64,000 bases of DNA from an uncultured Actinomycetes bacterium (GTDB lineage Bacteria; Actinomycetota; UBA4738; HRBIN12), in assembly GCA_963713185.1 (NCBI GenBank), contig CAVQKV010000004.1, positions 163,810 to 227,809 of the forward strand. The letters run 5' to 3'. Both the position numbers and the translations under genes were made by a program. Positions within the stretch are counted from its first letter, which is position 1. Each line of letters begins with the position of its first letter. This document shows positions 5,199 through 63,411 of this stretch, piece after piece. Below the pieces are notes generated by a model, which searched no databases, was not told the origin of the DNA, and was given only the letters and a program-made list of their open reading frames with translations.

Positions 5199-7871
<2,673 letters not shown>

Positions 7872-8311: not shown

Positions 8312-8326
8312 GGCGGTTCGATCCGG

Positions 8327-8710: not shown

Positions 8711-8858
8711 GGCCCCCTCCTTCGTCTCGCCCTGTCCGTTCGGATGCCCCGAACCTAGGCCGATGCCCGCGCGAGGTCGGTGCTCTCGGGCACCAGCCCG
8801 AGGTGACCTCGCTCACCCCGGGCTCCGGCGGGCTAGGCTGCGGCGCGAGGAGGCGCCG

Positions 8859-44662: not shown

Positions 44663-46171
44663 GTGCCGGACCCCTTCGCGGACCTTCCCGAACCCGAACT
44701 CGTCGACATCCGCGACGAGGCCGTCGCCCGCCCCGCGCTCGAGCGGCTCGGCAGGGCGGTCTGGGAGGAGGCCCTCCGCTACGTCTACGAGGACGCGATG
44801 CAGCGGCCGCTCCGAGCGGTGCCGTACCCGGAGATGCGCCGCACCTTCTTCGGGGCGTCGGGTGAACCGGCGCCCCCTCCGGACACCGCCTCGAAGGCCG
44901 AGGACGTCCTGGGCGAGTTCCGGGAGCGGGTCGCCCCGTACGTCTTCAACACCCAGCATCCCGGCTCGTACAGCTACTTCACGCCGCCGCCGCTCGCGAT
45001 GTCGATCGCTGGTGAGCTCCTCGCGCAGTGGGTGAACCAGGGCGTCGACGTCTGGGTCGCGGGACCGGTGGGGGCGCTCGTGGAGGAGGAGGTCACGGCC
45101 TGGCTCCGAACGCTGATCGGGTTCGGCGCCGGCTCGTGGGCCGTGCTCACCTCGGGCGGGGTGATGGCGAACATCATGGCGCTCACGGTCGCGCGCGACA
45201 TCCATCTGGCCCGGCTCCTCGGCCTGCGCGAGCCGCCGCGGGCGGGCGCGCTCGAGGGCACCCGCGTGTACGCGAGCGACCAGGCGCATTTCTCGATCGC
45301 GCGCGCGCTCGACGTGCTCGGGTTCCCGCCCGAGACCCTGCGCATCGTGCCCTCGGACGAGCGGTTCCGGTTGCACGCGGCGCCGGTCGCGAACGCCGTC
45401 GCCGAGGACCGCGCCGCCGGTCTGGTGCCGTTCGCGATCGCGGCGGTCGCCGGCTCGACGAACACCGGCAGCGTCGACCTCACCGGCGAGCTGGCTGACC
45501 TCGCCGAACGGGAGCGGTTGTGGCTGCACGTCGATGCCGCGTACGGGGGCGGGGCGGCGTTGTCGTCTCGGGTCGCGCGGCGCGTGCCCGACCTCGAGCG
45601 CGCCGACAGCGTCACGATCGACCCGCACAAGTGGTTCTTCCAGCCGTACGACATCGGCGCGCTCGTCGTGAAGCGCCGCGAGGACCTGCAGGAGACGTTC
45701 CACCGCACGCCGGAGTACTACCGGCATCCGAGTCCGAAGGACGCACCGCTGAACTGGTTCGAGTACTCGATCGAGGGGACGCGGCGGTTCCGCGGGCTGA
45801 AGCTCTGGCTGTCGTGGAAGCACCTGGGGACGGCGGGGTTCGCGCGGCTGATCGAGCACAACGTCGACCTGGCGGCGTACCTCGCCGCGAGGTGCCGAGA
45901 GGCGGCGGACCTCGACGTCGTCCCGGACGAGCCCGAGCTCTCGGTCGTGTGCTTCCGCCACCTGCCGCGGGGGCTCGAGGGCGACGCGCTGGACGCCTAC
46001 CAGGACCGGCTCCAGCTCGCGCTCGAGGCCAGCGAGGAGGCCTGGGTCTCGACGACGAGGATCCGCGGCGCGACGTACCTGCGAGCCGGGATCGTGAACT
46101 ACCTGTCCTCCGAGGCCGACGTGGATCGCATGCTCGAGACCCTCCGGCGTCTTTCGCCCGAAGTGCGCTGA
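44663..46171 (+). CDS. Group II pyridoxal-dependent decarboxylase (second copy)
   Basis: LTSGGVMANIMALTVARD, HVDAAYGGGAAL, and DPHKWFFQPYDIGALVV (PLP lysine). Confidence 0.85.
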   Translation: MPDPFADLPEPELVDIRDEAVARPALERLGRAVWEEALRYVYEDAMQRPLRAVPYPEMRRTFFGASGEPAPPPDTASKAEDVLGEFRERVAPYVFNTQHPGSYSYFTPPPLAMSIAGELLAQWVNQGVDVWVAGPVGALVEEEVTAWLRTLIGFGAGSWAVLTSGGVMANIMALTVARDIHLARLLGLREPPRAGALEGTRVYASDQAHFSIARALDVLGFPPETLRIVPSDERFRLHAAPVANAVAEDRAAGLVPFAIAAVAGSTNTGSVDLTGELADLAERERLWLHVDAAYGGGAALSSRVARRVPDLERADSVTIDPHKWFFQPYDIGALVVKRREDLQETFHRTPEYYRHPSPKDAPLNWFEYSIEGTRRFRGLKLWLSWKHLGTAGFARLIEHNVDLAAYLAARCREAADLDVVPDEPELSVVCFRHLPRGLEGDALDAYQDRLQLALEASEEAWVSTTRIRGATYLRAGIVNYLSSEADVDRMLETLRRLSPEVR

Positions 46172-46885: not shown

Positions 46886-46916
46886 GAAGGGGGCGCCCCT
46901 TTAGGGCGCCCCCTTC
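46886..46916. terminator. Bidirectional terminator-like hairpin between convergent genes
   Basis: 13-bp perfect stem: GAAGGGGGCGCCC (46886-46898) pairs with GGGCGCCCCCTTC (46904-46916). The loop is CTTTA. Confidence 0.7.
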
Positions 46917-46935
46917 TCCGTTGAGTGGGTTGTTG

Positions 46936-48728
46936 CTAGATCCCCGGGATGCGGATCAGCAGCAGCTGGCCTCCTTCGCGCTTGTACGTGAAGTCGGGAT
47001 CGGTGTCGCGTCGAGGAAGTTATCCGCACCCGCTGCCTTCTCCATCCAGAGCGAGTGCGCCTGGACGTTGATCAGGAACGCGCCAGTGCCGAACGCCGCC
47101 GAGGCGTCGACGATGCCGGTCGTCTCCCAGGAGCCCCAGTTGCCGAGCGGAGGGTCCGGGGTCGGGGTGGGACCAACATCCGTCGGGCCATTGTCGGCCG
47201 ACTGGTTCATCTTCGCGACGACCTGAGGCAGAGCTCGGTGACGAGAACGGGACGTACCACAGGCGCGCCGTGGTCGCGTTGGGGTCTGGGGGTTCGCGGG
47301 GAACTGGTTGCTGCCACCGGATCCTCGGTCACGAGGAGTCCGGTCTGCGTCGTCTCGATGTTGTCCGGCTGGTGGACCTCGTCCAGGGTCTTGACGGGAT
47401 TGTCGTCGCCGTCGAGGAGGATGGTAAGCGAGTCACCTGCGTCGGGTCGTCGGGTCGAGCACCATCTTCCAGACGCGGCCGTTCGTGGACTCGAAGTTCG
47501 GCGTGTCCAGGGGTCGTCGGCCGTCGGCCGCGGCCCGAGTCGGCGAAGTAGACGACGTTCCCCATGCCGGGGCGCTTGTCGTACGCGATGTCCTCGACGC
47601 GAACGAACTGGAAGACATGGTTGATGTCGCTCCAGTACTCGAGCACCCACTGGGGGCCGTCGATCGGGACCGCCGGCGTTACGGTACGAAGGTCGGTCTG
47701 CCAGCGGCGCCCGGCGGTGGCAGGGGTACCCGACGTCCGCTGACGTCAGCTCGGAGCCGTCAACAGGGTCGTTTCCGGTCGCGATCTCCTTCGGCACCTC
47801 GATGAAGTGACCGGTGATCGACTCGTGGCGGAGCCGGGTGCGAAGTCGTAGTAGTCGTTGAAGCCCGGCGTGTCCGAGACGAATGCCCACAGGTCGCCCT
47901 CGTCTGCGAGCAGCGCATCCGTGTCTCGGCGCGATGTACGAGTACAGCTGCGACTGGGCGGGCGCGGACGCCGCCGGGGTAGCGGGGCCATCGGGCGGGA
48001 GCCGTCAGCGGGCCGCTCGTGAACGTGTCGTCGCCCGAGAGGACGACCAGGATCGTCGTATCCCGGGATCGCGACGTCGTTCTCGTGGTTGTGTCGGCCC
48101 ATCCCGTAGATGGTGCTGGTAACCGCCGGTGTCCGGGGTCGAGCGCGAGGACGACGCCGTTCTCCTCTGCCCCCTGGGGCGCCGAGGGGCGGCGGCCACG
48201 AGTTCTCCTGCCGGAACACGTAGTCCGGCGACTCCTCGTTTGTGAAGAAGATGTCGCGGCCGAATCCCTCCCTGCTCGTTGCGAGGAAGTTCGAGCAGAA
48301 TCGCTGGAAGCCACCGCCGCTACCGATGACGAACGAGCCGTCGAGCACCCGCGCCCGCCGCGTTCAGAGTCAGCTGGCTGACCTGCGAGTTGTCGAAGTC
48401 GCTCTGGCCGTTGAAGCCGCGGTCGGGGCGGCCGAGTGCGAACGGGAACGGCACCTTGCTCGTCTCATGGTTCACGTAGAGATCGATCAGGCCCCGAGCC
48501 CGATCGGACGGACCGAGATCCCGTCGGGGATCGCCTCGAATCGGTAGCCACTGGGCAGCACGTCGCCGACGGTCAAGAGCGGCTGTCATCGAGACGCCGT
48601 TCTTGACGGCGGTGAGCATCGAGGGCCTGGATGGTCTTGAAGCCACCGTTCTCGGCTGCCAGCGCGGCGTGCCAGAGAGCACCATGGCCATCGCGAGCAG
48701 GGCGCAGGCGAAGACCTCCGTCTCGCAT
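46936..48728 (-). pseudogene. Secreted PhoX/DUF839-like beta-propeller protein, shattered by about 15 or more frameshifts
   Basis: ATG 48728 follows AAGGAGG. Recognisable consecutive peptide blocks alternate among all three minus frames: ETEVFACALLAMAMVLSG / ALAAENGGFKTIQAL / LIDLYVNHETSKVPFPF / GGGFQRFCSNFLATSREGFGRDIFFTNEE / TIYGMGRHNHENDVAIPGYDD / LVVLSGDDTFTSGPL / LEYWSDINHVFQFVRVEDIAYDKRPGMGNVVYFADSG / DSLTILLDGDDNPVKTLDEVHQPDNIETT / WETTGIVDASAAFGTGAFLINVQAHS / DFTYKREGGQLLLIRIPGI*. The family call is moderate. Confidence 0.7.
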
Positions 48729-48900
48729 GGTTCCTCCTTGGGGCAGGGGACAGGTCCAGTCGTAGCAGACTCCCTCGGCGCGGGCAACCCACACGCAGCG
48801 TAGGTACGTGCATGCGTGTGACGCCGTCGTGCTTGCTCGCCAACGGGCGTGCTCTCCTCGAGGTCATGCCGGCGGATCGGCTCGCTGGTTATGGTGAGCT

Positions 48901-49494: not shown

Positions 49495-50874
49495 ATGAGC
49501 ACGTCATCGACCATCTCGATCCCGAAGCTCCGTGCGGACGTCCGTGGCCAGGCGATCGGTCCCGACGACGTCGGGTACGACGAAGCCCGAACGCCCTTCT
49601 ACGGTGGGATCGACCGGCGCCCGGCCGCGATCGTCCGGGTCGCCGACGAGATGGACGTCGCGCGCGTGATCGCGCTGGTGCGCGAGGCCGACGTCGAGCT
49701 CGCGGTCCGCGGCGGCGGCCACAGCATCCCCGGTCACAGCGTGTCCGAGGGCGGGATCGTGGTCGACCTCAGGCGCATGCGGGCGATCGACATCGACGCC
49801 GGAGGGCCCACCGCGTGGGCCCAGACCGGCCTCACCGCCGCCGAGTTCACCGCCGCCACCGCGGCGCACGGACTCGGCGTGGGGTTCGGCGACACCGGCT
49901 CCGTGGGGGTCGGCGGGATCACCCTGGGCGGCGGGGTCGGCTACCTGGTCCGCAAGCACGGCCTCACGATCGACAGCCTGCTGGCCGCCGAGATCGTCAC
50001 CGCGGACGGCGAGCTCCGCCGCGTCGACGCCGACAACGAGCCCGACCTGTTCTGGGCGATCCGCGGCGGTGGTGGGAACTTCGGGATCGCGACGCGGTTC
50101 CTCTTCGGCCTACACCAGGTCGACACGGTCGTCGGCGGCATGCTGCTGCTGCCCGCGACGGCCGGCACGATCGCCGGGTTCATGGCCGAGGCCGATGCCG
50201 CCCCCGAGGAGCTCTCGTCGATCGCGAACGTGATGCCCGCGCCGCCGATGCCGTTCCTGCCCGAGGAGGCCCACGGCAAGCTCGCGATCATGGCGCTGAT
50301 GACCTACGCCGGCGACGTCGAGGCGGGCCAGGAGGCGTTGGCGCCGTTCCGAGCGCTCGCCGAGCCGATCGTCGACATGCTCCGGCCGATGCCCTACCCG
50401 GAGGTCTACCCGCCGGAGGAGGAGGGCTACCACCCGGTCGCGACGGCCCACACGATGTTCGTCGACACGATCGGCCGCCCCGAGGCCGAGACGATCCTCG
50501 AGCACCTGGGGACCTCGACCGCGATGATGCGGGTGGCGCAGCTCCGAACGCTCGGCGGTGCGATGGCCCGGGTGCCCGTCGACGCGACGGCGTTCGCGCA
50601 CCGGCAGAGCAAGATCATGGTGAACGTGGCGGCGGTGTACGAGCGTCCCGAGGAGCGCGTGGTTCACGAACCGTGGGTCGAGGCGTTCGCGGCCGCGCTC
50701 AATCAGGGCGACGACGGCGCGTACGTCAACTTCCTGGGCGACGAGGGCGACGCGCGGATCCGGGCGGCGTACCCAGGCCAGACCTGGGACCGCCTCACGA
50801 AGATCAAGGCGCGATACGACCCGACGAACCTGTTCCGGCTCAACCAGAACATCCCGCCGGAGGGGGCGAGATGA
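49495..50874 (+). CDS. FAD-binding oxidoreductase (FAD_binding_4 / BBE-like)
   Basis: ATG 49495 follows GGAGGGAGGAGG. AVRGGGHS, FWAIRGGGGNFGIATRF, and the C-terminal BBE-like YDPTNLFRLNQNI. Confidence 0.85.
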   Translation: MSTSSTISIPKLRADVRGQAIGPDDVGYDEARTPFYGGIDRRPAAIVRVADEMDVARVIALVREADVELAVRGGGHSIPGHSVSEGGIVVDLRRMRAIDIDAGGPTAWAQTGLTAAEFTAATAAHGLGVGFGDTGSVGVGGITLGGGVGYLVRKHGLTIDSLLAAEIVTADGELRRVDADNEPDLFWAIRGGGGNFGIATRFLFGLHQVDTVVGGMLLLPATAGTIAGFMAEADAAPEELSSIANVMPAPPMPFLPEEAHGKLAIMALMTYAGDVEAGQEALAPFRALAEPIVDMLRPMPYPEVYPPEEEGYHPVATAHTMFVDTIGRPEAETILEHLGTSTAMMRVAQLRTLGGAMARVPVDATAFAHRQSKIMVNVAAVYERPEERVVHEPWVEAFAAALNQGDDGAYVNFLGDEGDARIRAAYPGQTWDRLTKIKARYDPTNLFRLNQNIPPEGAR

Positions 50875-51662
50875 ACACGGTGACCTCGAGGGACGGCACC
50901 ACGATCGCGTTCGACGAGTCGGGGGAGGGCCCACCGCTGCTGGTCGTGGGCGGCGCGCTGAGCAATCGCTACGCCGCCGCGACCCAGGCCGGCCTGCTCG
51001 CCCCGACCTTCACGGTGTACACGTACGACCGGCGCGGGCGTGGCGACAGCGGCGACACGCTCCCGTACGCGGTCGAACGCGAGGTCGAGGACGTCCAAGC
51101 GCTCGTCGAGGACGCGGGCGGGACCGCCTACGCGATCGGTCACTCGTCGGGCGCCGTGCTCGCGCTCGAGGCCGCGGCCGCGACCCCGGGCATCACGAAG
51201 CTCGTGCTGTACGAACCTCCGTTCATCGTCGACGACTCCCGCCCGCCGTTGCCGAACGACTACGTCCCGCACCTCGAAGAGCTGGCCGCGAGCGACCGCC
51301 GCGGCGAGGCCGTCGAGTACTTCATGACCACGGGCGTCGGCGTGCCGGCCGAGGCGATCCCCTCGATGAAGGAGTCGCCGTTCTGGCCGTCGCTGGAGGC
51401 GATGGCGCACACGATCTCGTACGACGGCCGGATCATGGGCGACAACATGGCCGGCAAGCCGCTCCCCAGCGATCGGTGGTCCACGGTCACGATCCCGACG
51501 CTGGTGATCGACGGTGGGGCGAGCCCGGACTGGGCACGCAACGCGGTGCAGGGGCTCGTCGATGTCCTCCCCAACGCGCGACGCCTGACGATGGACGGGC
51601 AGACGCACGAGGTCGACCCGACGCTCCTGGCGCCGATCCTGACGGAGTTCTTCACGAGCTGA
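50871..51662 (+). CDS. Alpha/beta hydrolase
   Basis: The ATG overlaps the upstream stop (ATGA). Nucleophile elbow GHSSGA, plus a distal His in DGQTHEV. Confidence 0.8.
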   Translation: MNTVTSRDGTTIAFDESGEGPPLLVVGGALSNRYAAATQAGLLAPTFTVYTYDRRGRGDSGDTLPYAVEREVEDVQALVEDAGGTAYAIGHSSGAVLALEAAAATPGITKLVLYEPPFIVDDSRPPLPNDYVPHLEELAASDRRGEAVEYFMTTGVGVPAEAIPSMKESPFWPSLEAMAHTISYDGRIMGDNMAGKPLPSDRWSTVTIPTLVIDGGASPDWARNAVQGLVDVLPNARRLTMDGQTHEVDPTLLAPILTEFFTS

Positions 51663-51692
51663 GCCGCGTCCGCGCGTGCCCGGTCGACCTCG
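51662..51692. repeat. Intergenic GC-rich repeat, copy H (degenerate)
   Basis: AGCCGCGTCCGCGCGTGCCCGGTCGACCTCGG lies directly after the hydrolase stop. It aligns with copy G1 (GCGCGTGACCAGTCAGACCCTCC). Confidence 0.45.
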
Positions 51693-51837
51693 GCGACGGA
51701 CGTCCCCACTGCTACCGCGAGTCCACGATCGCGATTCTCGCATGGCCAGGCTCGTGGGCACGACGGTGTTCGCATCGGGCGCCGTCATGCTCGACCACGA
51801 ACCTCGGGACACGTGAGGACCATTATCCTGGTGGGTC

Positions 51838-52347
51838 ATGGGTCGCTCGCTCCTCGACGACGCCTTCGCGCACCATGTGTGGGCGACGCTGCGGCTGATC
51901 GATGCATGCCGCTCGCTCACGCCGGGACAGCTGAACGCGCCCGTCCCCGGAACCTACGGGTCGATCCTGGGAACCATGCGCCATCTGGTCGGCGGCGACA
52001 CGTACTACCTGTCGCACCTGACGGGCGATCCCGCTCGGGAGATCGAAACGGAGCGGATGGATCTCGTGGAACTAAGAGCCGAGATGGAGGCCGACGAACG
52101 GACCTGGGTCGAGCTCCTCGCCGAGGACGTCGACCCCGATGCCGTCGTGAAAGACGTCGACGAGGAGGGCTATGAGCGGGACGCCTCGATCGGCATCCGG
52201 CTCGCCCAGGCGATCCACCACGGGACCGACCATCGGAGCCAGATCTGCACGGCGCTGACGACGTTTGGCGTCGAGCCACCGATCATCGACGTCTGGGGGT
52301 TCGGCGCCCGGACCGGGCTCGTCGTCGAGGTTCCGCCCGCGTCCTAG
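51838..52347 (+). CDS. DinB family protein
   Basis: DAFAHHVWATLRLIDAC...ILGTMRHLVGGDTYY...AQAIHHGTDHRSQI has the DinB His triad pattern. Confidence 0.8.
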   Translation: MGRSLLDDAFAHHVWATLRLIDACRSLTPGQLNAPVPGTYGSILGTMRHLVGGDTYYLSHLTGDPAREIETERMDLVELRAEMEADERTWVELLAEDVDPDAVVKDVDEEGYERDASIGIRLAQAIHHGTDHRSQICTALTTFGVEPPIIDVWGFGARTGLVVEVPPAS

Positions 52348-52349
52348 CC

Positions 52350-52375
52350 GCCGGGGTGCTGGCCGAAGCGACCTC
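52350..52375. repeat. Intergenic GC-rich repeat, copy D (degenerate)
   Basis: GCCGGGGTGCTGGCCGAAGCGACCTCC lies 3 nt after the DinB stop. It is closest to copy E. Confidence 0.45.
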
Positions 52376-52518
52376 CCCACGCCATCGCACACCCGAACGT
52401 TCCCGACACTCGGGCCCCTCATGGGTCCTCATGGACCCCATGGAAGGGGTCCGGCGGCCCCCAGAGACGGGTGCGCGGCGGGGATGATGACCGTGTGGAG
52501 GGAAGGAGATGAGGCGAC

Positions 52519-53283
52519 ATGCCCGTTGCTGATCCCTCGTTCGGCTGGCAAGAGGCCATGGCTGCGTTCGCCATCATCGCGGTCGTCGCGTTCCTGGTGA
52601 CGTGGGTCGTGACGGACCTCGGTCACGTGCCGCGAACGCCCTATGTGGCGACCCTCACGCTGACGACCGTCGCCCTCGCGGGCGGTTACCTCGCTCGGTC
52701 GGGCACGTCCGGGGCCGACCTCGTCACGCAAGGGTGGGGCTGGGGCATCGTCGCGGGTCTGGTCGCGGCCGCGCTGGTCGCACCCCTCGTGCGTCGCCTA
52801 CCCAAGGGACCTCGGTCGGAAGGCCCGCAGCTCATCGGACGCCTCCTATGGGAAGGGGTCGTGTACGGAACCGCGGAGGCGATCCTGCTCGCGACCCTTC
52901 CGGTCCTGGCGGTCTGGCAGGCCGCCGATGCGCTCGGCTGGACGGGCACGGGCTGGGCGGATGCGGCTTCGGGCGCGCTCGCGGTGGCCGGAGCCCTGTT
53001 CGTCATCTTGGTGCACCACCTTGGGTACCGGGAGTTCAGGGCGTCGAGGAAGATGCTGGCGGGTGCGCTGGCGGGTTGCGGCATCCAGGCGCTTGCGTTC
53101 CTCCTCACCGGGAACGTGCTCGCGCCGATCGTCGCTCACATCGTGCTGCACTGGCAGCTGACGTTCCGCGGCAGCGAGATGCCGCCCCAGTCGGACGCCA
53201 ACCGTGGGGCCCCTGGCGTCGTCGGTCGCGTGGGGCTGCCCGAGTCACCCGCGCCGGCGAAGGACCTCGTCGCGCAGCGGTGA
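52519..53283 (+). CDS. Polytopic membrane protein, function unknown (CPBP-protease-like features are weak)
   Basis: 254 aa with 6-7 hydrophobic helices. It has an EGVVYGTAEAI block and conserved His residues (LVHHLGYRE, VAHIVLH). Confidence 0.55.
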   Translation: MPVADPSFGWQEAMAAFAIIAVVAFLVTWVVTDLGHVPRTPYVATLTLTTVALAGGYLARSGTSGADLVTQGWGWGIVAGLVAAALVAPLVRRLPKGPRSEGPQLIGRLLWEGVVYGTAEAILLATLPVLAVWQAADALGWTGTGWADAASGALAVAGALFVILVHHLGYREFRASRKMLAGALAGCGIQALAFLLTGNVLAPIVAHIVLHWQLTFRGSEMPPQSDANRGAPGVVGRVGLPESPAPAKDLVAQR

Positions 53284-53299
53284 CCGTCGTCTCGCGCAA

Positions 53300-53390
53300 G
53301 CCACCGATGGCGGTGGCCCACCGCGTCGAAGGGGTCGATGCCTCACGTGCCGGGGCGCACGTGCCAGCTTGGAGAGAGATGCGATAAGCG
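53300..53390. repeat. Intergenic GC-rich repeat, copy A (long form)
   Basis: Hairpin GCCACCG-ATGG-CGGTGGC at 53300-53317. Core GCCGGGGCGCACGTGCCAGCTTGG at 53349-53372. Confidence 0.65.
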
Positions 53391-53391
53391 C

Positions 53392-54084
53392 CTACCTGCG
53401 ACCGGGTTCCGCGGGATCCGTGTGGGTCTGTCGGGCGGACCGAGGACGCACCATGAGGTTGACGACGCTGCCGGCGATCGCGCCCAGTGCGGCGCCCCCG
53501 ATGACGTCGAGCGGGAGATGCGCGCCGACGTAGATGCGGCCGAAGAGCACCACCGTCCCGAGCGCCAGGGCCACGATCACCCACCGCATCGAGAGGTGGG
53601 CGGCCACCACGACGGTGAGCGCGGCAGCGACGGCAGCGTGTCCCGACGGGTAGCCGAGGCTGTCCGCCCCGAACAGCTCGCGCTCTTCCACGGACGTGAG
53701 GACCGCGGCCGGCCGGCCTCGGTCCACGACGCCCTTTACCACGAGGGCCACCAAGTACACCCCGACCCCCGCGAGCGCGATGGCGAGGGCCAGACGGAAC
53801 CGGCGGAATAGGAGCGCGACCACGGCGAGGGCAGGGATCGTGATGAACGTGCCGTACTGCATGAAGGGCCACACCGCCGTGTAGAGACCCTGGGGCAGGT
53901 CGTTCACCGCCCGGAAGATGCTGACTTCGAGCGCGGCGAGCTCGGCCCGGGCCACCAGCATCGTCGTCGCGAGCACCACCACGGCCGCGCACAGGACGAC
54001 GAGGTTCCATCTTGTCCGCGCGAGGGCGGGCTCGTCGGACGGCTGCCGAGCCGGTCCAGCCCGCTGCGCCGCTTCCTCGGTCAC
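53392..54084 (-). CDS. PAP2-family phosphatase (membrane)
   Basis: KGVVDRGRP, YPSGHAA and GRIYVGAHLPLDVIGG are the three PAP2 motifs. The likely start is GTG 54084 after GGAGGGG. The longer ORF to 54249 crosses an intergenic repeat. Confidence 0.8.
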   Translation of the reverse strand: MTEEAAQRAGPARQPSDEPALARTRWNLVVLCAAVVVLATTMLVARAELAALEVSIFRAVNDLPQGLYTAVWPFMQYGTFITIPALAVVALLFRRFRLALAIALAGVGVYLVALVVKGVVDRGRPAAVLTSVEERELFGADSLGYPSGHAAVAAALTVVVAAHLSMRWVIVALALGTVVLFGRIYVGAHLPLDVIGGAALGAIAGSVVNLMVRPRSARQTHTDPAEPGRR

Positions 54085-54141
54085 GGCTCGATCCCCTCCA
54101 CAGGAGAGGCCGAGTATGAGCTGGGCACCTGCCGAAAGCGA

Positions 54142-54228
54142 GCCGGTGGCGGGCGCCCGGATGCTGCCCCGATCGGCCTCTCGGGCCGGGGCGCAAGTTC
54201 CGGCTTGGGCGAAGCAGCCGATCCGCTC
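54142..54228. repeat. Intergenic GC-rich repeat, copy B (long form)
   Basis: CCG-GTGG-CGG box near 54143-54152. Core GCCGGGGCGCAAGTTCCGGCTTGG at 54185-54208. About 24 of 30 core positions match copy A. Confidence 0.65.
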
Positions 54229-54320
54229 GAAGTCGTGAACACGGCGCATGCGGTGCTCTTCGGTGACCAGACCCTAACCCGCACAGACCCTCTCTGGCGG
54301 GGGTTCGCTACGCTCACTAG

Positions 54321-54779
54321 ATGACCACGGACCCCGAGATTCGGGTTCGGCGGGCGGGCCGGGCAGACGGGGCGGAAGTCGCACGATTCGGGGAGGCGTT
54401 CGACAACGAAGTGCTCGCCGAGGAAACCAGGCGATTCCTCAACGATGATCGACATCACCTGGTGCTCGGGTACGTTGACGATCGGCCCGCAGGGTTCGCT
54501 TCGGCAGTAGAAGTCTTCCACCCGGACAAGCGGTGCGAACTCTTCCTGAACGAGGTCGCGGTCATGGAAGGAGTTCGCCGACATGGGGTGGCTCGGGCTC
54601 TGATCCGCGAGCTGAAGCGCGTTGGCCGCGAACGGGGGTGCGTCAGCATGTGGGTCTTGACAGACGAGGACAACGCGCCCGCGATGGGCCTATACCGGGG
54701 CACCGGTGGACAGTGGGACGGCGAGCAGAGCGTGATGTTCGAGTACGACCTCACCACCGGTGAGCCCGCGGAGACGTGA
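54321..54779 (+). CDS. GNAT family N-acetyltransferase
   Basis: 152 aa. EVAVMEGVRRHGVARALIRELKRVGRERG is the acetyl-CoA-binding motif A. Confidence 0.8.
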   Translation: MTTDPEIRVRRAGRADGAEVARFGEAFDNEVLAEETRRFLNDDRHHLVLGYVDDRPAGFASAVEVFHPDKRCELFLNEVAVMEGVRRHGVARALIRELKRVGRERGCVSMWVLTDEDNAPAMGLYRGTGGQWDGEQSVMFEYDLTTGEPAET

Positions 54780-54787
54780 CCTCAGGC

Positions 54788-54815
54788 GCCGGGGCGCGTG
54801 ACCAGTCAGACCCTC
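54788..54815. repeat. Intergenic GC-rich repeat, copy G1
   Basis: GCCGGGGCGCGTGACCAGTCAGACCCTCC lies 8 nt after the GNAT stop. It shares GCGTGACCAGT with copy G2. Confidence 0.6.
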
Positions 54816-55016
54816 CCGATGTGCGCGGTCAGCAGCTCGAGCCTAGTCTTCGACGAACGGCTCCGGTGTCGGTCGCCGCCCAGTGCGACGTGACGATCTG
54901 ACCGGTGTTCGGGCGGTTCGGGTGTGGTCGGTAGGCAGGGCTCGTTGAGGACTTGCTCGCCGTGACCCCCGACTTCCGACAGTTGGAACTGCAACCCATA
55001 TCCCGAGGAGGAGGCG

Positions 55017-55654
55017 ATGGGCGAGCCGATCGCACCGCGACACTTCCACGAGGCCGACTGGCGGGTGATACGACACGCCGCGTGCGCGCACTTCCGCACC
55101 GGATCGTTCGAAGCCGGCATCGCGCTGGTGGAGGAGATCGGCAGGCTGGCCGACGCCGCCAACCATCACCCAGATATCGATCTGCGGTCGGAGGGGGTAA
55201 CGGTGCGTCTGATCTCGAACAGCATCGGGGAGTTCAGCGAGCGTGATGTCACGCTCGCGGGACAGATCTCGTCGGCGGCGCGAGAACTGGACGCTCCCGT
55301 GGACCCGAGCGCCCTGCAGATCGTCCAGGTTGCGATCGACGCGCTCGTGATCCCCGAGGTGATGCCGTTCTGGCGCGCCGTGCTCGGCTACCGAGAGATC
55401 GGCGACGACGACCTGGCCGACCGGCGTTCCGAGGGGCCACCGGTCTGGTTCCAGCAGATGGACGCGCCGCGTCCACAGCGCAACCGGATCCACATCGATG
55501 TCTACGTGCCGCACGACCAGGCGGAGGCGCGCGTCGCCGCCGCGATCGCCGCGGGTGGTCATCTATGAGCGACGAGCACGCCCCGGGGTGGTGGACCCTG
55601 GCCGACGCCGAGGGCAACGAGGTCGACCTCGCCCCTTGGCCGGACCGCGACTGA
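55017..55654 (+). pseudogene. Pterin-4a-carbinolamine dehydratase (PCD/DCoH) domain fused to a VOC/glyoxalase-like domain, with an apparent frameshift near 55561
   Basis: PCD block: ANHHPDIDLRSEGVTVRL. VOC-like block: FWRAVLGYRE...RIHIDVYVP. The natural C-terminus SDEHAPGWWTLADAEGNEVDLAPWPDRD* lies in the next frame (ATG 55565 to TGA 55652-55654). Confidence 0.7.
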
Positions 55655-55687
55655 AACGATGGGTCTGCGGTGTCGGCACTGGAGTTC

Positions 55688-55780
55688 TCCGGATGGCCGG
55701 AACCGACACCCGCTCCCAAGTCTCAACGCGGTCACGACGCGCCGGAGCGCAAGTACCGTTTGGCGCTTAGCCCGAAGAGC
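55688..55780. repeat. Intergenic GC-rich repeat, copy C (long form)
   Basis: Hairpin TCCGG-ATGG-CCGGA at 55688-55701. Core GCCGGAGCGCAAGTACCGTTTGGCGC starting at 55741. Confidence 0.65.
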
Positions 55781-55786
55781 CCTTTC

Positions 55787-56110
55787 TCACAGCACCTGGA
55801 GAACCGGCTGGGTGGCCTTTGTCAGTCCCTCCATGACCGCGAAGTCGTGGGACGCGAGGTCCGATACCGAATCGTCGCTAAGAACCGATGCCCATAGCTC
55901 GGTCGCCAAGAAGCTCTCATACGCCTCCCGGTCCCGCCAGAGGTACATGCCGCCATAGACCTTGTCGTCAGCATTCTTGAGCCAGACCTTTGCGAGGAGA
56001 CCCGGGACGACGGCCATCATCGACGCGAACTCCTGGTTGGCCTCGATGAAGTCAGAGTCGCTCATATCCTCCATGCCGGACAACCGGTAGGTAACGACCT
56101 GAACATGCAT
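55787..56110 (-). CDS. YdhR-like putative monooxygenase (dimeric alpha-beta barrel), 107 aa
   Basis: ATG 56110 follows GGGAGG. MHVQVVTYRLSGM...MAVVPGLLAKVWL...GGMYLWRDREAYESF. Confidence 0.65.
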   Translation of the reverse strand: MHVQVVTYRLSGMEDMSDSDFIEANQEFASMMAVVPGLLAKVWLKNADDKVYGGMYLWRDREAYESFLATELWASVLSDDSVSDLASHDFAVMEGLTKATQPVLQVL

Positions 56111-56208
56111 GGCTGCCTCCCACTTCTCCTCGCGCCCGAGATGGGCGAACCGTTGCCACTCTTCCAGAGCGGGTCGGCCCTGGATAGGGGCGGTTAGCGG
56201 CGGCTCCT

Positions 56209-56240
56209 GCCGGGGGGCGTGACCAGTTTGGGCGCATGAC
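56209..56240. repeat. Intergenic GC-rich repeat, copy G2
   Basis: GCCGGGGGGCGTGACCAGTTTGGGCGCATGAC. It aligns with copy C (ACC.GTTTGG.CGC) and copy B (CTTGGGCG). Confidence 0.6.
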
Positions 56241-56350
56241 TCGTTCTTCCTACTGATACGAGCAAACGCGGGAGCGTGACTAGGTTGCTTCCCTTTGGGT
56301 GGAAGACCATAGTCAGTGATCGATCTCATCAACTGGAGGGGGAAACCAGA

Positions 56351-57085
56351 GTGAGCCCACTTAGAAGGATTGCGTCGCTTGCAGGCTGGCTTTTCATCGT
56401 CACCTTCATAGCCTCCATCCCAGCCTTCTTCATCTGCTACAAGCCGTTGCTGGATCACCCCAACTACATCGTCGGTGCAGGTGCGGACAGTCGCGTCGCC
56501 CTCGGAGCGCTCCTCGAGATGATCGTCATCGTGGCCAACATCGGTACGGCCGTCGTGTTGTTCCCGATCCTCAAGCGGCAGAACGAAAGCCTCGCTCTCG
56601 GCTACGTCACCGCCCGCGTCGTGGAATCCGTGTTCATCGGCGTCGGCATCCTCAGCCTCATGGCGGTCGTGACGTTGCGGCAGGACGTCGGGGCCGCCGG
56701 CGGGGACTCGCTCGTCATCGCCGGCCGGTCGCTCGTCGCGATCCACGACTGGACGTTCCTGCTCGGGCCCGGCTGGGTCGTCGGCCTCGGGAACGGGCTG
56801 ATCCTGGGCTACCTGATGTACGCGTCCGGTTTGGTGCCGCGCCGAATGACCTGGCTGGGCCTGATCGGAGGTCCGCTGATCATCCTGTCGGGGACCCTGG
56901 TGCTGTTCAACGTCATCGAGCCAGGCTCCTCAGCACAGGCGATCGCGACGATCCCGGAGTTCTTCTGGGAGCTGTCGCTCGGCATCTACCTCATCGTCAA
57001 GGGATTCAGGCCGTCTCCCATCACCGCCGGACTCGAGTCACCGGCCGCCGCTACTCCGGGTGTAATGCTCGTCGACCCGGCGTAG
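56351..57085 (+). CDS. DUF4386-domain membrane protein
   Basis: GTG 56351 follows GGAGGGGGA. LAGWLFIVTFIASIPA...LLEMIVIVANIGTAVVLFPILK...IPEFFWELSLGIYLIVKGF. Confidence 0.7.
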   Translation: MSPLRRIASLAGWLFIVTFIASIPAFFICYKPLLDHPNYIVGAGADSRVALGALLEMIVIVANIGTAVVLFPILKRQNESLALGYVTARVVESVFIGVGILSLMAVVTLRQDVGAAGGDSLVIAGRSLVAIHDWTFLLGPGWVVGLGNGLILGYLMYASGLVPRRMTWLGLIGGPLIILSGTLVLFNVIEPGSSAQAIATIPEFFWELSLGIYLIVKGFRPSPITAGLESPAAATPGVMLVDPA

Positions 57086-57139
57086 CTCGGAGCCCCGACT
57101 TCGGCCGGTCGCCCGGCGTGCCGCGAGGGCCACCGCTGC

Positions 57140-57165
57140 GCCGGGGCGCGCTGGCCTCGGCCTCC
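57140..57165. repeat. Intergenic GC-rich repeat, copy E (degenerate)
   Basis: GCCGGGGCGCGCTGGCCTCGGCCTCC, preceded by GGCCACCG as in copy A. Confidence 0.45.
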
Positions 57166-57180
57166 GTCAGGCTGCGATGG

Positions 57181-57531
57181 TCAGTTCCCCCAGAGCGGCC
57201 GGACCTCGATCGTTCCCGTCTGGGCGATGGGGTGCCCGCCTGCGATCTCAACGGCCTCCTCCAAACTGCCGCACTCGAGGATGTCGAACCCCCCGACCGC
57301 CTCCTTGGTTTCGGCGAACGGACCATCGGTGACCAGCGGCTTCCCATCGCGAACGCGAACCGAGCGAGCTCGGCGCGGTGGAGCCAGCTGATCGCCCGTG
57401 ATCCAGATGCCCCGCGCCTGGAGGTCGTCCAACCACGGGAGGCTCTCCTCAGGCGTGGCGTCGGTCGGGTCCGGTTCGGTCTGAGCGTCCATCCGCTCGG
57501 CATCCCAGCAGACCAGCAGCAGGAACTTCAT
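57181..57531 (-). CDS. YciI family protein (DGPF domain)
   Basis: ATG 57531 follows GGAAGGAG. MKFLLLV...VTDGPFAETKEAVGGFDILECGSLEEAVEIA. Confidence 0.8.
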   Translation of the reverse strand: MKFLLLVCWDAERMDAQTEPDPTDATPEESLPWLDDLQARGIWITGDQLAPPRRARSVRVRDGKPLVTDGPFAETKEAVGGFDILECGSLEEAVEIAGGHPIAQTGTIEVRPLWGN

Positions 57532-57764
57532 CGTCGCTCCTTCCCTCGTTCGGTGTGGGACGTTCCCATCTGGATGAACGACGAACAAGGTGAGCCCGAG
57601 ATCGACATCTCTGACGAAGATCGTTCGCCCAACATCCACCAGCCCTCGCGGACGGCCTGTGAAGAGATCGTCGAGTCCCGGCCGGAGGAGGACGCGGCGC
57701 CTCGGCGTCGCTGAGGCGACGTTAGGCTGGGTTCCATCCTTCCTGGCCCAGGTGATCACCGCTG

Positions 57765-58091
57765 ATGGCCCGAACCCCGGAACAGATCTGGCAGCCGATC
57801 GCGGAGTGGCAGCTCGCGACGACGGGGGTGACAGGCGGCACCGGGTTCGGGACCAACGAGGGGCTGCGGGTGTCCGGCAAGATCTTCGCGATGCTCGTCC
57901 GTGGTGAGCTCGTCGTGAAGCTCCCGAAGGATCGCGTGGACGAGCTGGTGGACACGGGCGTCGCGAGCCGCTTCGACGCGGGGAAGGGGCGTCCCATGAA
58001 GGCATGGGCATCGGTGCCTGCCGGCGCATCCGGACGCTGGAGGATGCTGGTCGAGGAGGCTCGCACGTTCGTTCTCGGCAAGAACGGATAG
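57765..58091 (+). CDS. TfoX N-terminal-domain-like / MmcQ-YjbR-like small protein
   Basis: LRVSGKIFAMLVRGELVVKLPKDRVDELV...GKGRPMKAWASVP. The family call is moderate. Confidence 0.5.
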   Translation: MARTPEQIWQPIAEWQLATTGVTGGTGFGTNEGLRVSGKIFAMLVRGELVVKLPKDRVDELVDTGVASRFDAGKGRPMKAWASVPAGASGRWRMLVEEARTFVLGKNG

Positions 58092-58123: not shown

Positions 58124-58894
58124 ATGTGTCACGAGACGACCGCTCGACCGCCGCTCCCGCCGATCGCGGGAGGCGCCGGTGCCGCAAGCAGCGGGGAGCT
58201 GATCCTCGACGCCGCCGACGGCAACCGGCTGCGGGCGTTCGCCGCGACCGCGATCGACCCGGAGGCGCCCGGCGTCGTGATCCTCCCGGACGTCCGCGGG
58301 TTGCATCCGTTCTACGAGGAGCTCGCGGTCCGGTTCGCCGAGGTGGGGGTGCACGCGACCGCGATCGACTACTTCGGACGCACGGCGGGCATCGAGGAGC
58401 GCGACGCCGACTTCGACTTCAGGACCCACATCCAGCAGGTCACCACCGAGGGTGTCCGCGCCGACGCGGCCGCCGCGATCGCGCACGTGCGGTCGGAGGC
58501 CGGCGGGGCAGCGGAGCGGGTGTTCACCGTCGGGTTCTGCGCCGGTGGCCGGTTCTCGTTCAACCAGGCGGTGGACCAGGAGCTCGACGGCGTGATCGGG
58601 TTCTACGGCGGTCCGCAAGGCAAGGGGCCCGAGGACGACCGCGCGCCGATCCGGCTCGCGCCCCGCTACCGCTGCCGGGTGCTCGGCCTGTTCGGGGGCG
58701 CCGACCGGAACATCCCGGCCGAGGCGCTCGACGCCTTCCGGGTGGCGCTGACCGAGGCCGGCGTCCCGAACGAGATCGTGGTGTACGAGGGTGCGCCCCA
58801 CTCGTTCTTCGACCGGGCGTTCGAGGAATACCGGCAGGCGTGCGACGACGCGTGGCGGCGGGTCCTGGCGTTCGTCCGCGACCCGGGCGTCTAG
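58124..58894 (+). CDS. Dienelactone hydrolase family protein
   Basis: ATG 58124 follows AAGGAGG. GVVILPDVRGL, nucleophile GFCAGG, and the C-terminal YEGAPHSFFD. Confidence 0.82.
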   Translation: MCHETTARPPLPPIAGGAGAASSGELILDAADGNRLRAFAATAIDPEAPGVVILPDVRGLHPFYEELAVRFAEVGVHATAIDYFGRTAGIEERDADFDFRTHIQQVTTEGVRADAAAAIAHVRSEAGGAAERVFTVGFCAGGRFSFNQAVDQELDGVIGFYGGPQGKGPEDDRAPIRLAPRYRCRVLGLFGGADRNIPAEALDAFRVALTEAGVPNEIVVYEGAPHSFFDRAFEEYRQACDDAWRRVLAFVRDPGV

Positions 58895-59346
58895 CCGCGC
58901 GACAGGAGCCGCTCGATCTCGTCGAGGTGCTCGAGCCGGTGGTCCGCGCGATCGGGATTGACGAGCCACCCGAGGGCCTCGTTGCGCGCGTAGAGCTCGT
59001 CGGAGAGTCCGGCCACCGCCCGGTCGGCCGCCTCGGCCGCCTCGACCGTGACCCGCGCCGCCGCGCGAGGCTCGAGGGCCGAGATCAGCGGCTTGGTCGC
59101 GTCGTTGATCCAGTCCACCGCGTCGTCGTGGTAGGTGGGGATGGGGCCGTTCCCATCGGGTCCCCATGCGTCGAGGCACGCCACGATCCGCAGGTCCCAG
59201 AACGCCGTGTGCCCGAGCACGCTCGCCACCGTCCAGCCGGCCTCCATCGGATGCGTGAGCTCGTCGTCCGAAGCCGTGTCGACGAACGCTCGCAGCCGGT
59301 CGAGCGCCACCCGGTTCACCTCGACGTAGGATCGATCCACCGCCAC
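58891..59346 (-). CDS. DinB_2 / mycothiol-dependent-isomerase-N-like protein
   Basis: WTVASVLGHTAFWDLR....DHRLEHLDEI has His-rich four-helix-bundle features. Confidence 0.6.
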   Translation of the reverse strand: MAVDRSYVEVNRVALDRLRAFVDTASDDELTHPMEAGWTVASVLGHTAFWDLRIVACLDAWGPDGNGPIPTYHDDAVDWINDATKPLISALEPRAAARVTVEAAEAADRAVAGLSDELYARNEALGWLVNPDRADHRLEHLDEIERLLSRG

Positions 59347-61188: not shown

Positions 61189-62498
61189 GGCGTGGTCGTC
61201 ACGGTCAGCTCGTCGCCGCCCGAGATCGTCACCCGTCGGCCTTCGAACGGCCTTCCGTCGAGGGTCGCCCCGGCGCCCGACGGCGCGACGCGGACCGCCG
61301 TGAGACCGCTCGCGACCTGGACGTGGATCAGCCCGGGCTCGGGATACGGCTCGGGCCGCAGGCCGCCGTAGTAGTAGGCCAGGATGTCCGACGCGGAGAG
61401 ACCGCGCAGCGCCTTGCCGTAGGCGCCCCACTGCACCATGCCGACCCCGTGTCCCCACCCCCGTCCCATGGCGATCGCCGCGCCGCCGTCGGACGTGAGC
61501 GTCATCCACCTCGAGGGGAGCGAGACGGGCAACGGTGCCGGCGGGTACCTGCCCGGCTCGAGGCACGGCCCCCACGCGTTGACCGCGTCGCGGAACGTGG
61601 TGAGGTCCATCGAGCGCGACCCGCCGTCCCCGTGGACGACGACCGTGGAGCCGTCCAGGGCCGCGCTCGAGATCGCGCGATGCGGGGGCCACTCGCCGGC
61701 CTCGTGCAGGAACGTCGCGAGGTCGTCGTACGGCAGCCGAACGCGCCAGCGCGACGTCGGCGACGCGCCGTCGTCGCGCTCGGCCACCGGACGCAGGTAC
61801 GGCAGGGGGGCGCTGCCGAAGACCGCGTCGTTGCCGTACGTGTGACCGTTCGAGGTCGAGAAGTACACGGTGTCGGCCGGCCGGCGATCGTAGAGCAGGA
61901 CCTCGCCCGCGGTGCGCCGGACGGCCGCGAACCAGCGCCGCACCTCCGGGTCGAACGGGACCGGGATCCCCCGATAGACCTGGCACGACGTGGTGGCGCA
62001 GATCGGCGTCTCCAGCGTCTCGCCCCGCGCGCCGTCCCAGCCCGTCGTGGCGAGCGCGTAGCTGCGTGCCGCGATCGCCTGGGCCTCGAGCGCCGCCAGG
62101 GGCCAGGACGCCGGTACCTCGGCGATGCCCTTGAGGTAGTCCTCGAACGGGAGCGTCAGCGTCAGGTCCAGCGTCCCGTCGTCCGCGCGCCTCACCGAGA
62201 GCGTTCCCGGGTACCGGGCCGCGAGGCGGGGCCGCTCGTAGCGAACGCATCGCGATCGCACGCGCGGGTAGGTGCCGTGCACCAGGAGCGAGGTGCCGGC
62301 CGGGGACCGGATGACGGCGGATCGGGGCACCTCGGGGATCGCCGTTGCCGACGCGGACGTCGTCGGCGAGCGCGACCCGGGGACCGATGGGACCTCGCGC
62401 GTCGCCGGCGCGGGCGTCGAGGTGCATCCGCCGGCCGCGAGGAGCAGGGTGACCGCGACCACGTGGACCAACGGACGCGGGAGGGCGGGCGCCGACAC
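61185..62498 (-). CDS. SpoIID/LytB-domain lipoprotein (peptidoglycan amidase enhancer-like)
   Basis: Lipobox LLLAAGGC. YLKGIAEVPASWPLAALEAQAIAARSYA, TSCQVYRG, VYFSTSNGHT. Confidence 0.8.
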   Translation of the reverse strand: MSAPALPRPLVHVVAVTLLLAAGGCTSTPAPATREVPSVPGSRSPTTSASATAIPEVPRSAVIRSPAGTSLLVHGTYPRVRSRCVRYERPRLAARYPGTLSVRRADDGTLDLTLTLPFEDYLKGIAEVPASWPLAALEAQAIAARSYALATTGWDGARGETLETPICATTSCQVYRGIPVPFDPEVRRWFAAVRRTAGEVLLYDRRPADTVYFSTSNGHTYGNDAVFGSAPLPYLRPVAERDDGASPTSRWRVRLPYDDLATFLHEAGEWPPHRAISSAALDGSTVVVHGDGGSRSMDLTTFRDAVNAWGPCLEPGRYPPAPLPVSLPSRWMTLTSDGGAAIAMGRGWGHGVGMVQWGAYGKALRGLSASDILAYYYGGLRPEPYPEPGLIHVQVASGLTAVRVAPSGAGATLDGRPFEGRRVTISGGDELTVTTTP

Positions 62499-62559
62499 CC
62501 GGGCACGCTATCAGGTCGGTTCGGGAACCCGGCCGAGCTGCCGGCTTGCCGATCGGGGC

Positions 62560-63411
62560 GTGCAGGGGCGAGGATCGACCCATGAGGGAGCCCGCCCCCT
62601 GAGCGTCACCGAGGTACCCGAGCTCCGGATCGACCTCGCCCCCGCGGCCGAGGCGATCGAGCGCGCCGGACGGCGGGTGACCGAGCTGCTCACGCACGTC
62701 GAGGATCCGGACCGGCCGACGCGCGGCCTCGAGTGGACGCTCGGCGACCTCGCCGCCCACCTCGCGGCTCGGACGGAGCGGTTCGCCGCGTACCTGTCCG
62801 GGGTCGCCACCCCCGAGGGGGAGATCGCCGGCATCGCGGCCGAGAACCAACAGGACATCCGCGCGCGCCGCGAGCGCCCCTTGGGCGACCACATCGACGA
62901 GGTCCGTTCGAACGTCGCGAGCTTCGTCGCGACCACCCGGGGCAAGCTCGGGGCCGACCCGTTCCCTTGGTACTCGGGCGTCACGCTCGACGTCGCGACC
63001 GCCGCCGGGGTCCTGCTCGGCGAGCTGATCGTGCACGGCTACGATGCGGCCCGGACGCTCGGGCACCCGTGGCCGATCGCGGCGACCGACGCTCGGACGA
63101 TCGTCCGGGCCGCGGCGGCGCTCGCCCCCTGGTACGTCGACGAGGAGGCGACCCGCGGAGACCGGACGACCTTCCGCATCGCGGCCCGGGGCGGCCCGGT
63201 GTTCCGGGTCCGGATCGACGACGGCACCGCCTCGGTGGAACCCGCGGACGGCGACGCGGACTGCACGATCCACGCCGACCCCGTGGCGCTGGTGCTCCTG
63301 TCGTACGGGCGGATCACGAGGTGGCGGGCGGCCGGGAAGGGCAAGCTCGTCGCCACGGGCCGCCGCCCCTGGCGGGCGCTCCGGTTCGAGAGGTCGTTCC
63401 GGTCCCCCTGA
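62560..63411 (+). CDS. Maleylpyruvate-isomerase-family mycothiol-dependent enzyme with an SCP2-like C-terminal domain
   Basis: WTLGDLAAHLA and ELIVHGYD (MDMPI_N / DinB-like). C-terminal ADPVALVLLSYGRI...GKLVATGRRPW. The start is uncertain (GTG 62560 is proposed). Confidence 0.65.
   Translation: MQGRGSTHEGARPLSVTEVPELRIDLAPAAEAIERAGRRVTELLTHVEDPDRPTRGLEWTLGDLAAHLAARTERFAAYLSGVATPEGEIAGIAAENQQDIRARRERPLGDHIDEVRSNVASFVATTRGKLGADPFPWYSGVTLDVATAAGVLLGELIVHGYDAARTLGHPWPIAATDARTIVRAAAALAPWYVDEEATRGDRTTFRIAARGGPVFRVRIDDGTASVEPADGDADCTIHADPVALVLLSYGRITRWRAAGKGKLVATGRRPWRALRFERSFRSP

Follow-up and report, generated by a model that had tools for sequence, protein, structure and literature searches.

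Co-oriented intergenic repeats at single-gene module junctions in a variable chromosomal hotspot of an uncultured Actinomycetota bacterium

Introduction

The described systems closest to the locus reported here are integron cassette arrays, the dif modules of Acinetobacter, repetitive extragenic palindromic (REP) sequences and chromosomal hotspots of horizontal gene transfer (HGT). Complete integrons have not been found in Actinobacteria genomes (PMC4889954). The pdif XerC/XerD sites of the Acinetobacter modules are 28 bp long (11-6-11), resemble chromosomal dif and lie inverted around modules on plasmids (PMC6449649). REPs number more than 100 in a genome, often alternate in orientation, and are characterised by a RAYT gene and a head reading GTAG or CGTC (PMC2817692, PMC3733652). 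The locus examined here lies in a 64-kb stretch of DNA from an uncultured soil actinomycete (contig CAVQKV010000004.1), referred to as the window, in which a GC-rich element of about 35-40 bp, referred to as the core, recurs in the intergenic regions of an array of single-gene modules.

Actinomycetota are reportedly without complete integrons, and their small accessory and stress genes are shuffled freely, with near-identical single genes (PAP2, DUF4386, ydhR) appearing in many unrelated neighbourhoods of this lineage. If the cores act as proposed below, they would for the first time give access to a dedicated mechanism of module exchange in the phylum, and would add a new type of recombination site and enzyme to the tools for engineering high-GC genomes. 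Should the motif instead prove to be a decaying repeat or a transcript-end element, what remains is an ordinary hotspot that carries an intergenic repeat specific to the lineage.

Results

A repeat family in consecutive intergenic regions

Cores A, B, G1, C and G2, located between 53.3 and 56.2 kb, constitute a true repeat family (Table 1). All five are intergenic and on the plus strand, with 65-85% identity among copies and the extended consensus GCCTCaCGn-GCCGGGGCGC-(aa)-GTG(a)CCaG-yTTGG. The full family model (R1), built from ten sequences and searched against both strands of the window (128 kb), scored the five at 23-33 bits, the next best match in the window reaching 9.2 bits, a gap of 14 bits. 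A non-circular test of membership was provided by a sequence-only model (R2), built from five copies on other metagenome contigs (two from L079 and one each from L025, L023 and L002) and searched against the whole window with filters off. R2 recovered A, G1 (E = 3e-5), G2 (E = 5e-4) and B, with E-values across the four of 5e-7 to 7e-4 and noise at or below 9 bits; core C reached only 7.2 bits.

Mechanical repeat finding returned A, B and C as the top direct-repeat family of the region, with A and B 85% identical over 33 nt. The strict pattern GCCGGGGCGCNNGTNCCNGNTTGG gave 2 matches against 0.14 expected. The bare 10-mer GCCGGGGCGC, allowing at most one mismatch, gave 43 window matches against 50 expected, and since it is not enriched, the word by itself is no proof of a family. 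Hidden Markov models in a leave-one-out scheme, with only window copies as input, separated A/B/C from G1/G2, with weak recovery of B, C and G2. The ABC-type and G-type models are blind to each other within the window, and their connection comes from the outside copies. Rfam, at gathering and E-value thresholds, gave no match at the cores, and a MAFFT alignment over the entire intergenic regions was not useful.

An earlier note on this sequence had claimed eight copies of a related element, A to E, G1, G2 and H, in consecutive intergenic regions and in one orientation whatever the gene orientation. The layout is confirmed for five to six copies: A, B, G1, C and G2 stand, E joins them as a degenerate sixth, and D and H were found by no model. 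The core spacing of 468-999 bp given at the time becomes 468-953 bp between supported cores, the upper figure having come from the unsupported D-to-A interval.

Core E has no match under R1, R2 or the leave-one-out models and carries an internal insertion or duplication (GGCCTC GGCCTC). A better-preserved G-type copy, GGGGCGCGTGAGGGCCTCTGTCAGTTTGGGG, follows the DUF4386 gene of contig L082 and aligns with core E by parts as GGGGCGCGTGA-GGGCCTCTGT-CAGTTTGGGG; E is accepted as a degenerate member because it is orthologous to this copy. D was absent under the leave-one-out models, R1, R2 and an E-type model, and D and H alike show chance-level similarity. The intergenic region of H is itself variable, with a gene remnant in its place in contig L001.

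Core A sits where the membrane-protein and PAP2 genes converge, 19 nt past the PAP2 stop, and orthologous copies follow PAP2 in L079 and L025/L035. Core B separates the diverging PAP2 and GNAT genes, upstream of their starts by 101 and 113 nt respectively, and core G1 begins 9 nt past the GNAT stop. Core C sits where the VOC and ydhR genes converge, 22 nt beyond the ydhR stop, and its ydhR-side half is preserved after the ydhR homologue of L078. Core G2 separates the diverging ydhR and DUF4386 genes, upstream of their starts by about 99 and about 119 nt respectively. Core E follows the DUF4386 stop at a distance of 55 nt and lies beyond the YCII stop by about 5 nt (core proper 18 nt).

Distribution and orientation

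The 5-6 copies fall within 3.9 kb, and R1 found none in the other 60 kb of the window. In 395 kb of related contigs the family model detected about 7 further copies, all intergenic where checked, with no convincing copy in the other ~60 loci of that set. L079 carries an extra copy 36 nt after an adh_short stop, co-oriented with its copy after PAP2, and L002 carries two co-oriented copies at 6226-6263 and 9870-9910. Co-orientation thus holds in every multi-copy locus (window 6/6, L079 2/2, L002 2/2), for which our own calculation gives about 1/128 by chance. Orientation relative to the adjacent gene varies, with a reverse core after PAP2 and adh_short and a forward core after DUF4386 and GNAT.

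The exact ABC-type pattern, scanned in one genome per species for 185,579 species, matched 11 times, always singly, in scattered phyla and mostly within genes, which is the chance expectation. Scans of viral contigs with the patterns of both types gave 15 and 0 matches, with similarity never extending beyond the pattern, and a plasmid search with the whole array returned weak coding matches only. These scans indicate a rare, lineage-restricted and clustered family, neither a generic terminator nor a REP-like genome-wide repeat.

Other intergenic repeats were seen in the related contigs. A second, unrelated repeat, TACGCACAAGGAGCTTTGTCGGCGGATCGAGAGGG, is absent from the window and occurs at least 4 times over 4.4 kb of L079 (positions 1250-1400, 3480-3530 and 4090-4140), with further occurrences in L080 (2860-2900) and L033 (536-552). 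L007, from a Thermoleophilia metagenome-assembled genome (MAG; MFD02416.bin.2.59), has tandem near-perfect hairpins, GGTACCGGCTTGGCCGGTACC and GGTGCCGGCTCTGCCGGCGCC, at about 5140-5260 just upstream of a gene start; they surfaced solely through containing the search pattern. Downstream of the ydhR homologue of L078, at 3030-3130, palindromic repeats of GCCTGCCCTATAAGGGGCAGGGC type occur in a row.

Conservation of sequence rather than structure

What is conserved in the cores is primary sequence, not structure. Folded as single-stranded DNA, the intergenic regions did not outperform their shuffles (z = -0.8 to +0.6). As RNA, 11 copies gave z = -2.4 to +1.8, with 9 of the 11 no better than shuffles and with predicted stems that differ between copies. 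A search for a partner arm complementary to any core, within 150 nt on either side, stayed at chance level (p 0.02-1.0 in 14 tests). The upstream hairpin with a kept loop, described earlier for the long copies, did not hold up: those at A and C look like ordinary stems in converging-gene gaps, and that at B, CCG-GTGG-CGG, has a stem of 3 bp.

The cores contain an imperfect dyad, TCACGCGCC|GG|GGCGCGTGA, centred on CC|GG|GG, and in the G-type consensus CCGGGG can be read as the centre between inverted arms of 7 bp. Paired dyad cells amount to 71%, against at most 58% in slid controls, without covariation; the dyad is a sequence feature and does not count as evidence of RNA structure.

Several candidate identities were rejected. 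A terminator hairpin has no fold signal, and a terminator scan gave no match at the cores. No relation to a transfer-messenger RNA (tmRNA) or tRNA 3' end was found, and promoter readings of the core (sigma-70, extracytoplasmic function GGAAC-N17-GTT, sigma-54) gave no fit by eye.

Read by eye, the A-B differences (6/6) and those of C (3/3) fall in one codon phase (53339-53372, 54175-54208 and 55738-55760). The plus frame reads ASRAGA(H/Q)VPAW with a stop 3-9 codons on, and the minus frame QAGTCAPAREA. This pattern may be a coding relic, or chance (p ~0.004, post hoc).

A hotspot with gene-by-gene turnover

The array occupies an interval whose content differs between relatives. One of them, L001 (48.9 kb; sample ERZ25039536), shares 95-99% identity and the gene order with the window and shows small, gene-level differences. 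It lacks 54906-55181 through a 276-bp deletion between GATCTG.CGG microhomologies, and right after its hydrolase stop it carries a 5' PNPOx-like remnant (L001 15500-15685) replacing window 51673-51750. An intact PNPOx gene lies at the corresponding position in L053 (3043-3501), and the remnant in L001 is a trace of gene loss in the hotspot.

Five soil contigs (L050-L053 and L073; 74-78% DNA identity) retain both flanks (BBE-hydrolase; YjbR-DinB_2-MFS) and carry between them PNPOx, SnoaL, PAP2 (inverted relative to the window), an HIT fragment and a PPOX gene. Besides PAP2, no other array gene of the window lies between these flanks. Retained flanks combined with different content identify the hydrolase-to-YjbR interval as a hotspot in which genes turn over one by one. 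The relatives show units gained, lost, inverted and permuted, the unit-wise variation for which the earlier note had suggested looking.

Single-gene relocation and breakpoints

Array genes relocate singly. PAP2 homologues (79-90% DNA identity) occupy at least 7 different contexts, adjoining pup directly in most relatives and elsewhere LPG_synthase (in either orientation), Ppx-GppA and others. In the contigs with PAP2 after pup (L018, L021, L022, L024, L027, L029, L030, L032 and L066), pup lies about 100 nt upstream and its product ends in ...FVKAYIQKGGE. One region of 60-110 nt upstream of PAP2, with a -10-like CATACT box, is common to all contexts. DUF4386 homologues (93-95% protein identity) occur in three other contexts, one with a membrane-protein gene as direct neighbour, and a ydhR homologue (80% protein identity) sits behind an isochorismatase gene. 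A core accompanies PAP2, DUF4386 and ydhR into some of the other contexts.

The 670-kb contig L081 has, at 8307-10714, an ABM-like small gene, then a membrane-protein homologue (76% DNA identity), then a DUF4386 homologue. This module set is partly common with the window, in a different order and without cores.

Several homology boundaries fall at or within cores. Homology of L079 to the window ends at 53331, just past core A, and that of L025/L035 at about 53349-53353, at the outer edge of the same core. L002/L023 homology ends at 54193, inside core B, and L078 homology at 55749, inside core C; L082 homology ends at core E, BLAST placing the end at 57150 and a gapped alignment at about 57172. 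At the L002/L023 junction, the half without homology to the window is a G-type half-site, as expected for hybrid sites. Other boundaries lie off the cores, namely 56261 (L082 upstream), 57108 and 56322 (L081) and 54155 (L079/L080 upstream); many further ones are near start codons. Breakpoints fall in a core or at its edge at 5 of ~9 informative junctions, the targets filling about 30% of the intergenic DNA.

Gene map and sequence quality

The window is high-GC (~70%) chromosomal DNA, with housekeeping genes for SecA, RF-2, FtsE, tmRNA and a UvrD-like helicase, and the nearest named relatives of its genes are "Actinomycetota bacterium" MAGs. The earlier gene map of 51.6-58.1 kb, with one gene per interval in either orientation, agrees with Pfam (Table 1).

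Table 1. Coordinates of the cores, proposed copies, genes and hotspot in the window
Feature	Coordinates	Strand	Type, support or remark
alpha/beta-hydrolase	50871-51662		conserved left flank of array
proposed copy H	51662-51700	+	not supported; leave-one-out models and R1 without match
variable hotspot, eight single-gene modules	51663-57764	.	hydrolase-to-YjbR interval
DinB	51838-52347	+	Pfam
proposed copy D	52350-52372	+	not supported; only a GC-rich 10-mer in common
membrane protein	52519-53283	+	no family assigned
core A	53338-53378	+	ABC-type; GCCTCACGT GCCGGGGCGCACGTGCCAGCTTGG; R1 30.2 bits, R2 26.7 bits
PAP2	53392-54084	-	Pfam; module between cores A and B
core B	54173-54215	+	ABC-type; R1 33.2 bits, R2 16.7 bits
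GNAT	54321-54779	+	Pfam
core G1	54777-54812	+	G-type; CCTCAGGC GCCGGGGCGCGTGACCAGTCAG; R1 26.4 bits, R2 21.0 bits
Pterin_4a+Glyoxalase_6 fusion	55017-55568, then 55565-55655 past one frameshift	+	Pfam
core C	55731-55769	+	ABC-type with 1-nt deletion; R1 23.3 bits, R2 7.2 bits
ydhR	55787-56110	-	Pfam; module between cores C and G2
core G2	56197-56237	+	G-type; R1 26 bits, R2 17.1 bits
DUF4386	56351-57085	+	Pfam; module between cores G2 and E
core E	57137-57176 (core proper 57140-57162)	+	degenerate G-type; alignment to L082 copy
YCII	57181-57531	-	Pfam
YjbR	57765-58091		conserved right flank of array

Several genes of the window are split or fragmentary: a UvrD-like helicase in two pieces (37472-39546), PhoX-like debris (46900-48800), the frameshifted Pterin_4a+VOC fusion (55017-55655) and an aminotransferase C-terminal fragment (28904-29215). 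The window differs from L001 by about 150 small indels in 17 kb, which together with the split genes suggests assembly indel errors; the frameshifts, that of the VOC fusion included, may be long-read assembly errors rather than real pseudogenes.

Elsewhere in the window are a raiA RNA motif (3649-3878; 150.8 bits) and a tmRNA gene (25464-25817; tag ADNDYALAA) with no integrase or island adjoining. Two paralogous PLP-dependent decarboxylases lie 3.4 kb apart (39851-41257 and 44663-46171), and three DinB/MDMPI-type genes fall within 12 kb (51838-52347, 58891-59346 and 62272-63411).

Discussion

Proposed role of the cores

The reading that we favour, at a probability of roughly 0.35, is that the cores are co-oriented double-stranded DNA sites at module junctions, used by a trans-acting recombinase encoded elsewhere. 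They form a lineage-restricted, sequence-conserved family of about 35-40 bp at the junctions of independently relocating single-gene modules in a hotspot. A site-specific recombinase would recognise the cores, cross over there, and excise, insert or exchange modules between direct repeats, with the resulting layout integron-like or dif-module-like and the site unrelated. The unfixed orientation relative to the adjacent gene points to a role at the DNA rather than the RNA level. Taken with the conserved sequence, the intergenic position, the co-orientation and the location at junctions of mobile modules, it makes a directional double-stranded DNA site a better fit than an RNA element. That the sites are recombination substrates, and that a trans-acting recombinase exists, is what we infer from this combination. 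A broader picture, in which an uncultured soil Actinomycetota lineage possesses a non-integron cassette system whose chromosomal trans-acting recombinase inserts, excises and reorders genes and so builds hotspot arrays from own-promoter single genes and co-oriented, non-palindromic ~38-bp sites, is more speculative and at present doubtful.

Several observations weigh against recombination at the cores. No enzyme is in view: a domain scan of the ~60 products of the whole window contained no recombinase, integrase or transposase domain, as the earlier note had stated for recombinases, and none was seen beside the copies in L002, L025 and L079. Genes have relocated without any core in L080, L081, L083, L053 and the contigs with PAP2 after pup, so the repeat is not required for shuffling. 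Both structural differences between the window and L001, the 276-bp deletion and the replacement in the hydrolase-DinB gap, lie away from cores. The coincidence of breakpoints with cores is suggestive, a weak statistic with a binomial p of about 0.1 by estimate. The copies known overall number about a dozen, cores B and C have a weak dyad or none, and the spacing differs by 2 nt between the two types, being longer in the ABC-type, which is awkward for a single recombinase. The missing enzyme, the relocation without cores and the weak breakpoint statistic are the reasons why the probability is held at this level.

Alternative explanations

A possible but rather doubtful alternative is that the cores are decaying relics of a small non-autonomous selfish repeat (REP-like, REPIN-like, resembling miniature inverted-repeat transposable elements, or footprints of these) that earlier spread between the genes of accessory regions, perhaps favouring one strand, and is now inherited with the neighbouring gene. 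The copies are indeed short, intergenic and degenerate, with a partial dyad; they are co-inherited with the adjacent gene across contexts, relocation needs no core, and the other intergenic repeat families in the related contigs indicate that repeats of this sort are frequent in the group. Copies are very few, however, with none elsewhere in the 64 kb and only single chance-level matches (11) in the exact-pattern scan of 185,579 species. The window contains no RAYT or IS200-type gene, and the cores have neither terminal inverted repeats and target duplications nor a fold signal, the GTAG or CGTC head of known REP superfamilies (PMC3733652) not being seen by eye. Somewhat less probable is a cis-acting expression element, such as a factor-dependent terminator, an insulator or a protein-binding site, travelling with each gene and functional in any context. 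A core does lie near the 3' end of every array gene: for the five plus-strand genes a forward core (or the claimed D) lies 3-86 nt past the stop, and for all three minus-strand genes a core lies 18-23 nt past it. It also moves along with PAP2, DUF4386 and ydhR, and an 8-bp stem with a tetraloop can be drawn for the G-type consensus, with GTTTGG after it. Such an element is hard to reconcile with cores B and G2, which lie between diverging genes where nothing ends, with the inconstant gene-relative orientation and with the housekeeping genes of the window, which have no core. Folding no better than shuffles, stems that vary by copy and the blank terminator scan also count against it.

The codon-phase pattern would be explained if the cores were copies of a protein-coding gene end, duplicated at successive insertions in the manner of att repeats, since the six A-B differences and the three of C share one phase and the plus frame reads as a peptide. 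This is improbable: the observation is post hoc, a peptide search found no intact gene with such an end in any locus, the frames are antisense to or out of frame with real genes, and the orthologous copies, which carry indels, lack a phase pattern. Chance resemblance among GC-rich intergenic sequences could account for the unenriched 10-mer, the chance-level D and H, and the weak leave-one-out recovery of B, C and G2. It is already disfavoured, and very improbable, given that R2 finds G1 and G2 at E-values of at most 5e-4, that 14 bits separate the family from the next match, and that orthologous copies are kept in other contigs.

Comparison with known systems

The earlier note had likened the array to integrons or to an integrase-less integron cassette array (CALIN), and the likeness of layout stands: one co-oriented repeat at each junction, single small accessory genes of 0.5-1 kb (GNAT, VOC, DinB, YCII, ABM-like), environmental-cassette gene families, an array that varies between relatives, and no nearby integrase, as in CALINs too. 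Cores G2 (GTTTGGG) and C (GTTTGGC) are, moreover, each one base from GTTRRRY. The likeness does not extend to the sites. An attC is a 57-141-nt imperfect palindrome with extrahelical bases, its R''/L'' arms pairing with L'/R' and its R' and R'' boxes reading GTTRRRY and RYYYAAC, whereas the cores are short and consist of a single conserved block of 35-40 nt, not of R/L boxes around a variable centre. No inverted partner arm occurs within 150 nt, folds of the single-stranded DNA stay at shuffle level (z ~0), and the best copies have GCTTGGA (A), GCTTGGG (B) and GTCAGAC (G1) instead of GTTRRRY, so the earlier view that the motif is not a classical attC is upheld. Integron cassettes are mostly co-oriented and promoterless, whereas three of the eight array genes are reversed (5 plus, 3 minus) and the modules own a conserved promoter region, as in the -10-like CATACT region of PAP2. 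No IntI is encoded among the window products, and a CALIN with unusual attC sites is accordingly the least credible of the readings considered.

With the Acinetobacter dif modules the array shares discrete accessory modules that contain no recombinase gene, short bounding sites, varied contexts and, in the reading favoured here, a recombinase encoded elsewhere (PMC6449649). The cores differ from pdif sites in their length of ~35-40 bp, their GC-richness, their direct orientation (window, L079 and L002), their chromosomal location and a spacing that varies by 2 nt. The arms of dif are typically ATAA/TTAT-like, and by eye the cores show neither such arms nor another likeness to dif.

REPs, bacterial interspersed mosaic elements (BIMEs) and REPINs resemble the cores in being short, GC-rich, partly palindromic, extragenic and placed near gene ends, and REPs can be recombination hotspots. 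The cores are few, all co-oriented and clustered in one hotspot, without a stable hairpin and without a RAYT gene in the window, in contrast to REPs and REPINs. Apart from its repeat, the locus as a whole resembles chromosomal HGT hotspots, with conserved flanks (BBE-hydrolase on one side, YjbR-DinB_2-MFS on the other), variable content and gene remnants such as the PNPOx fragment of L001. Such hotspots need no specific junction repeat, and the co-oriented repeat is the extra feature of this one.

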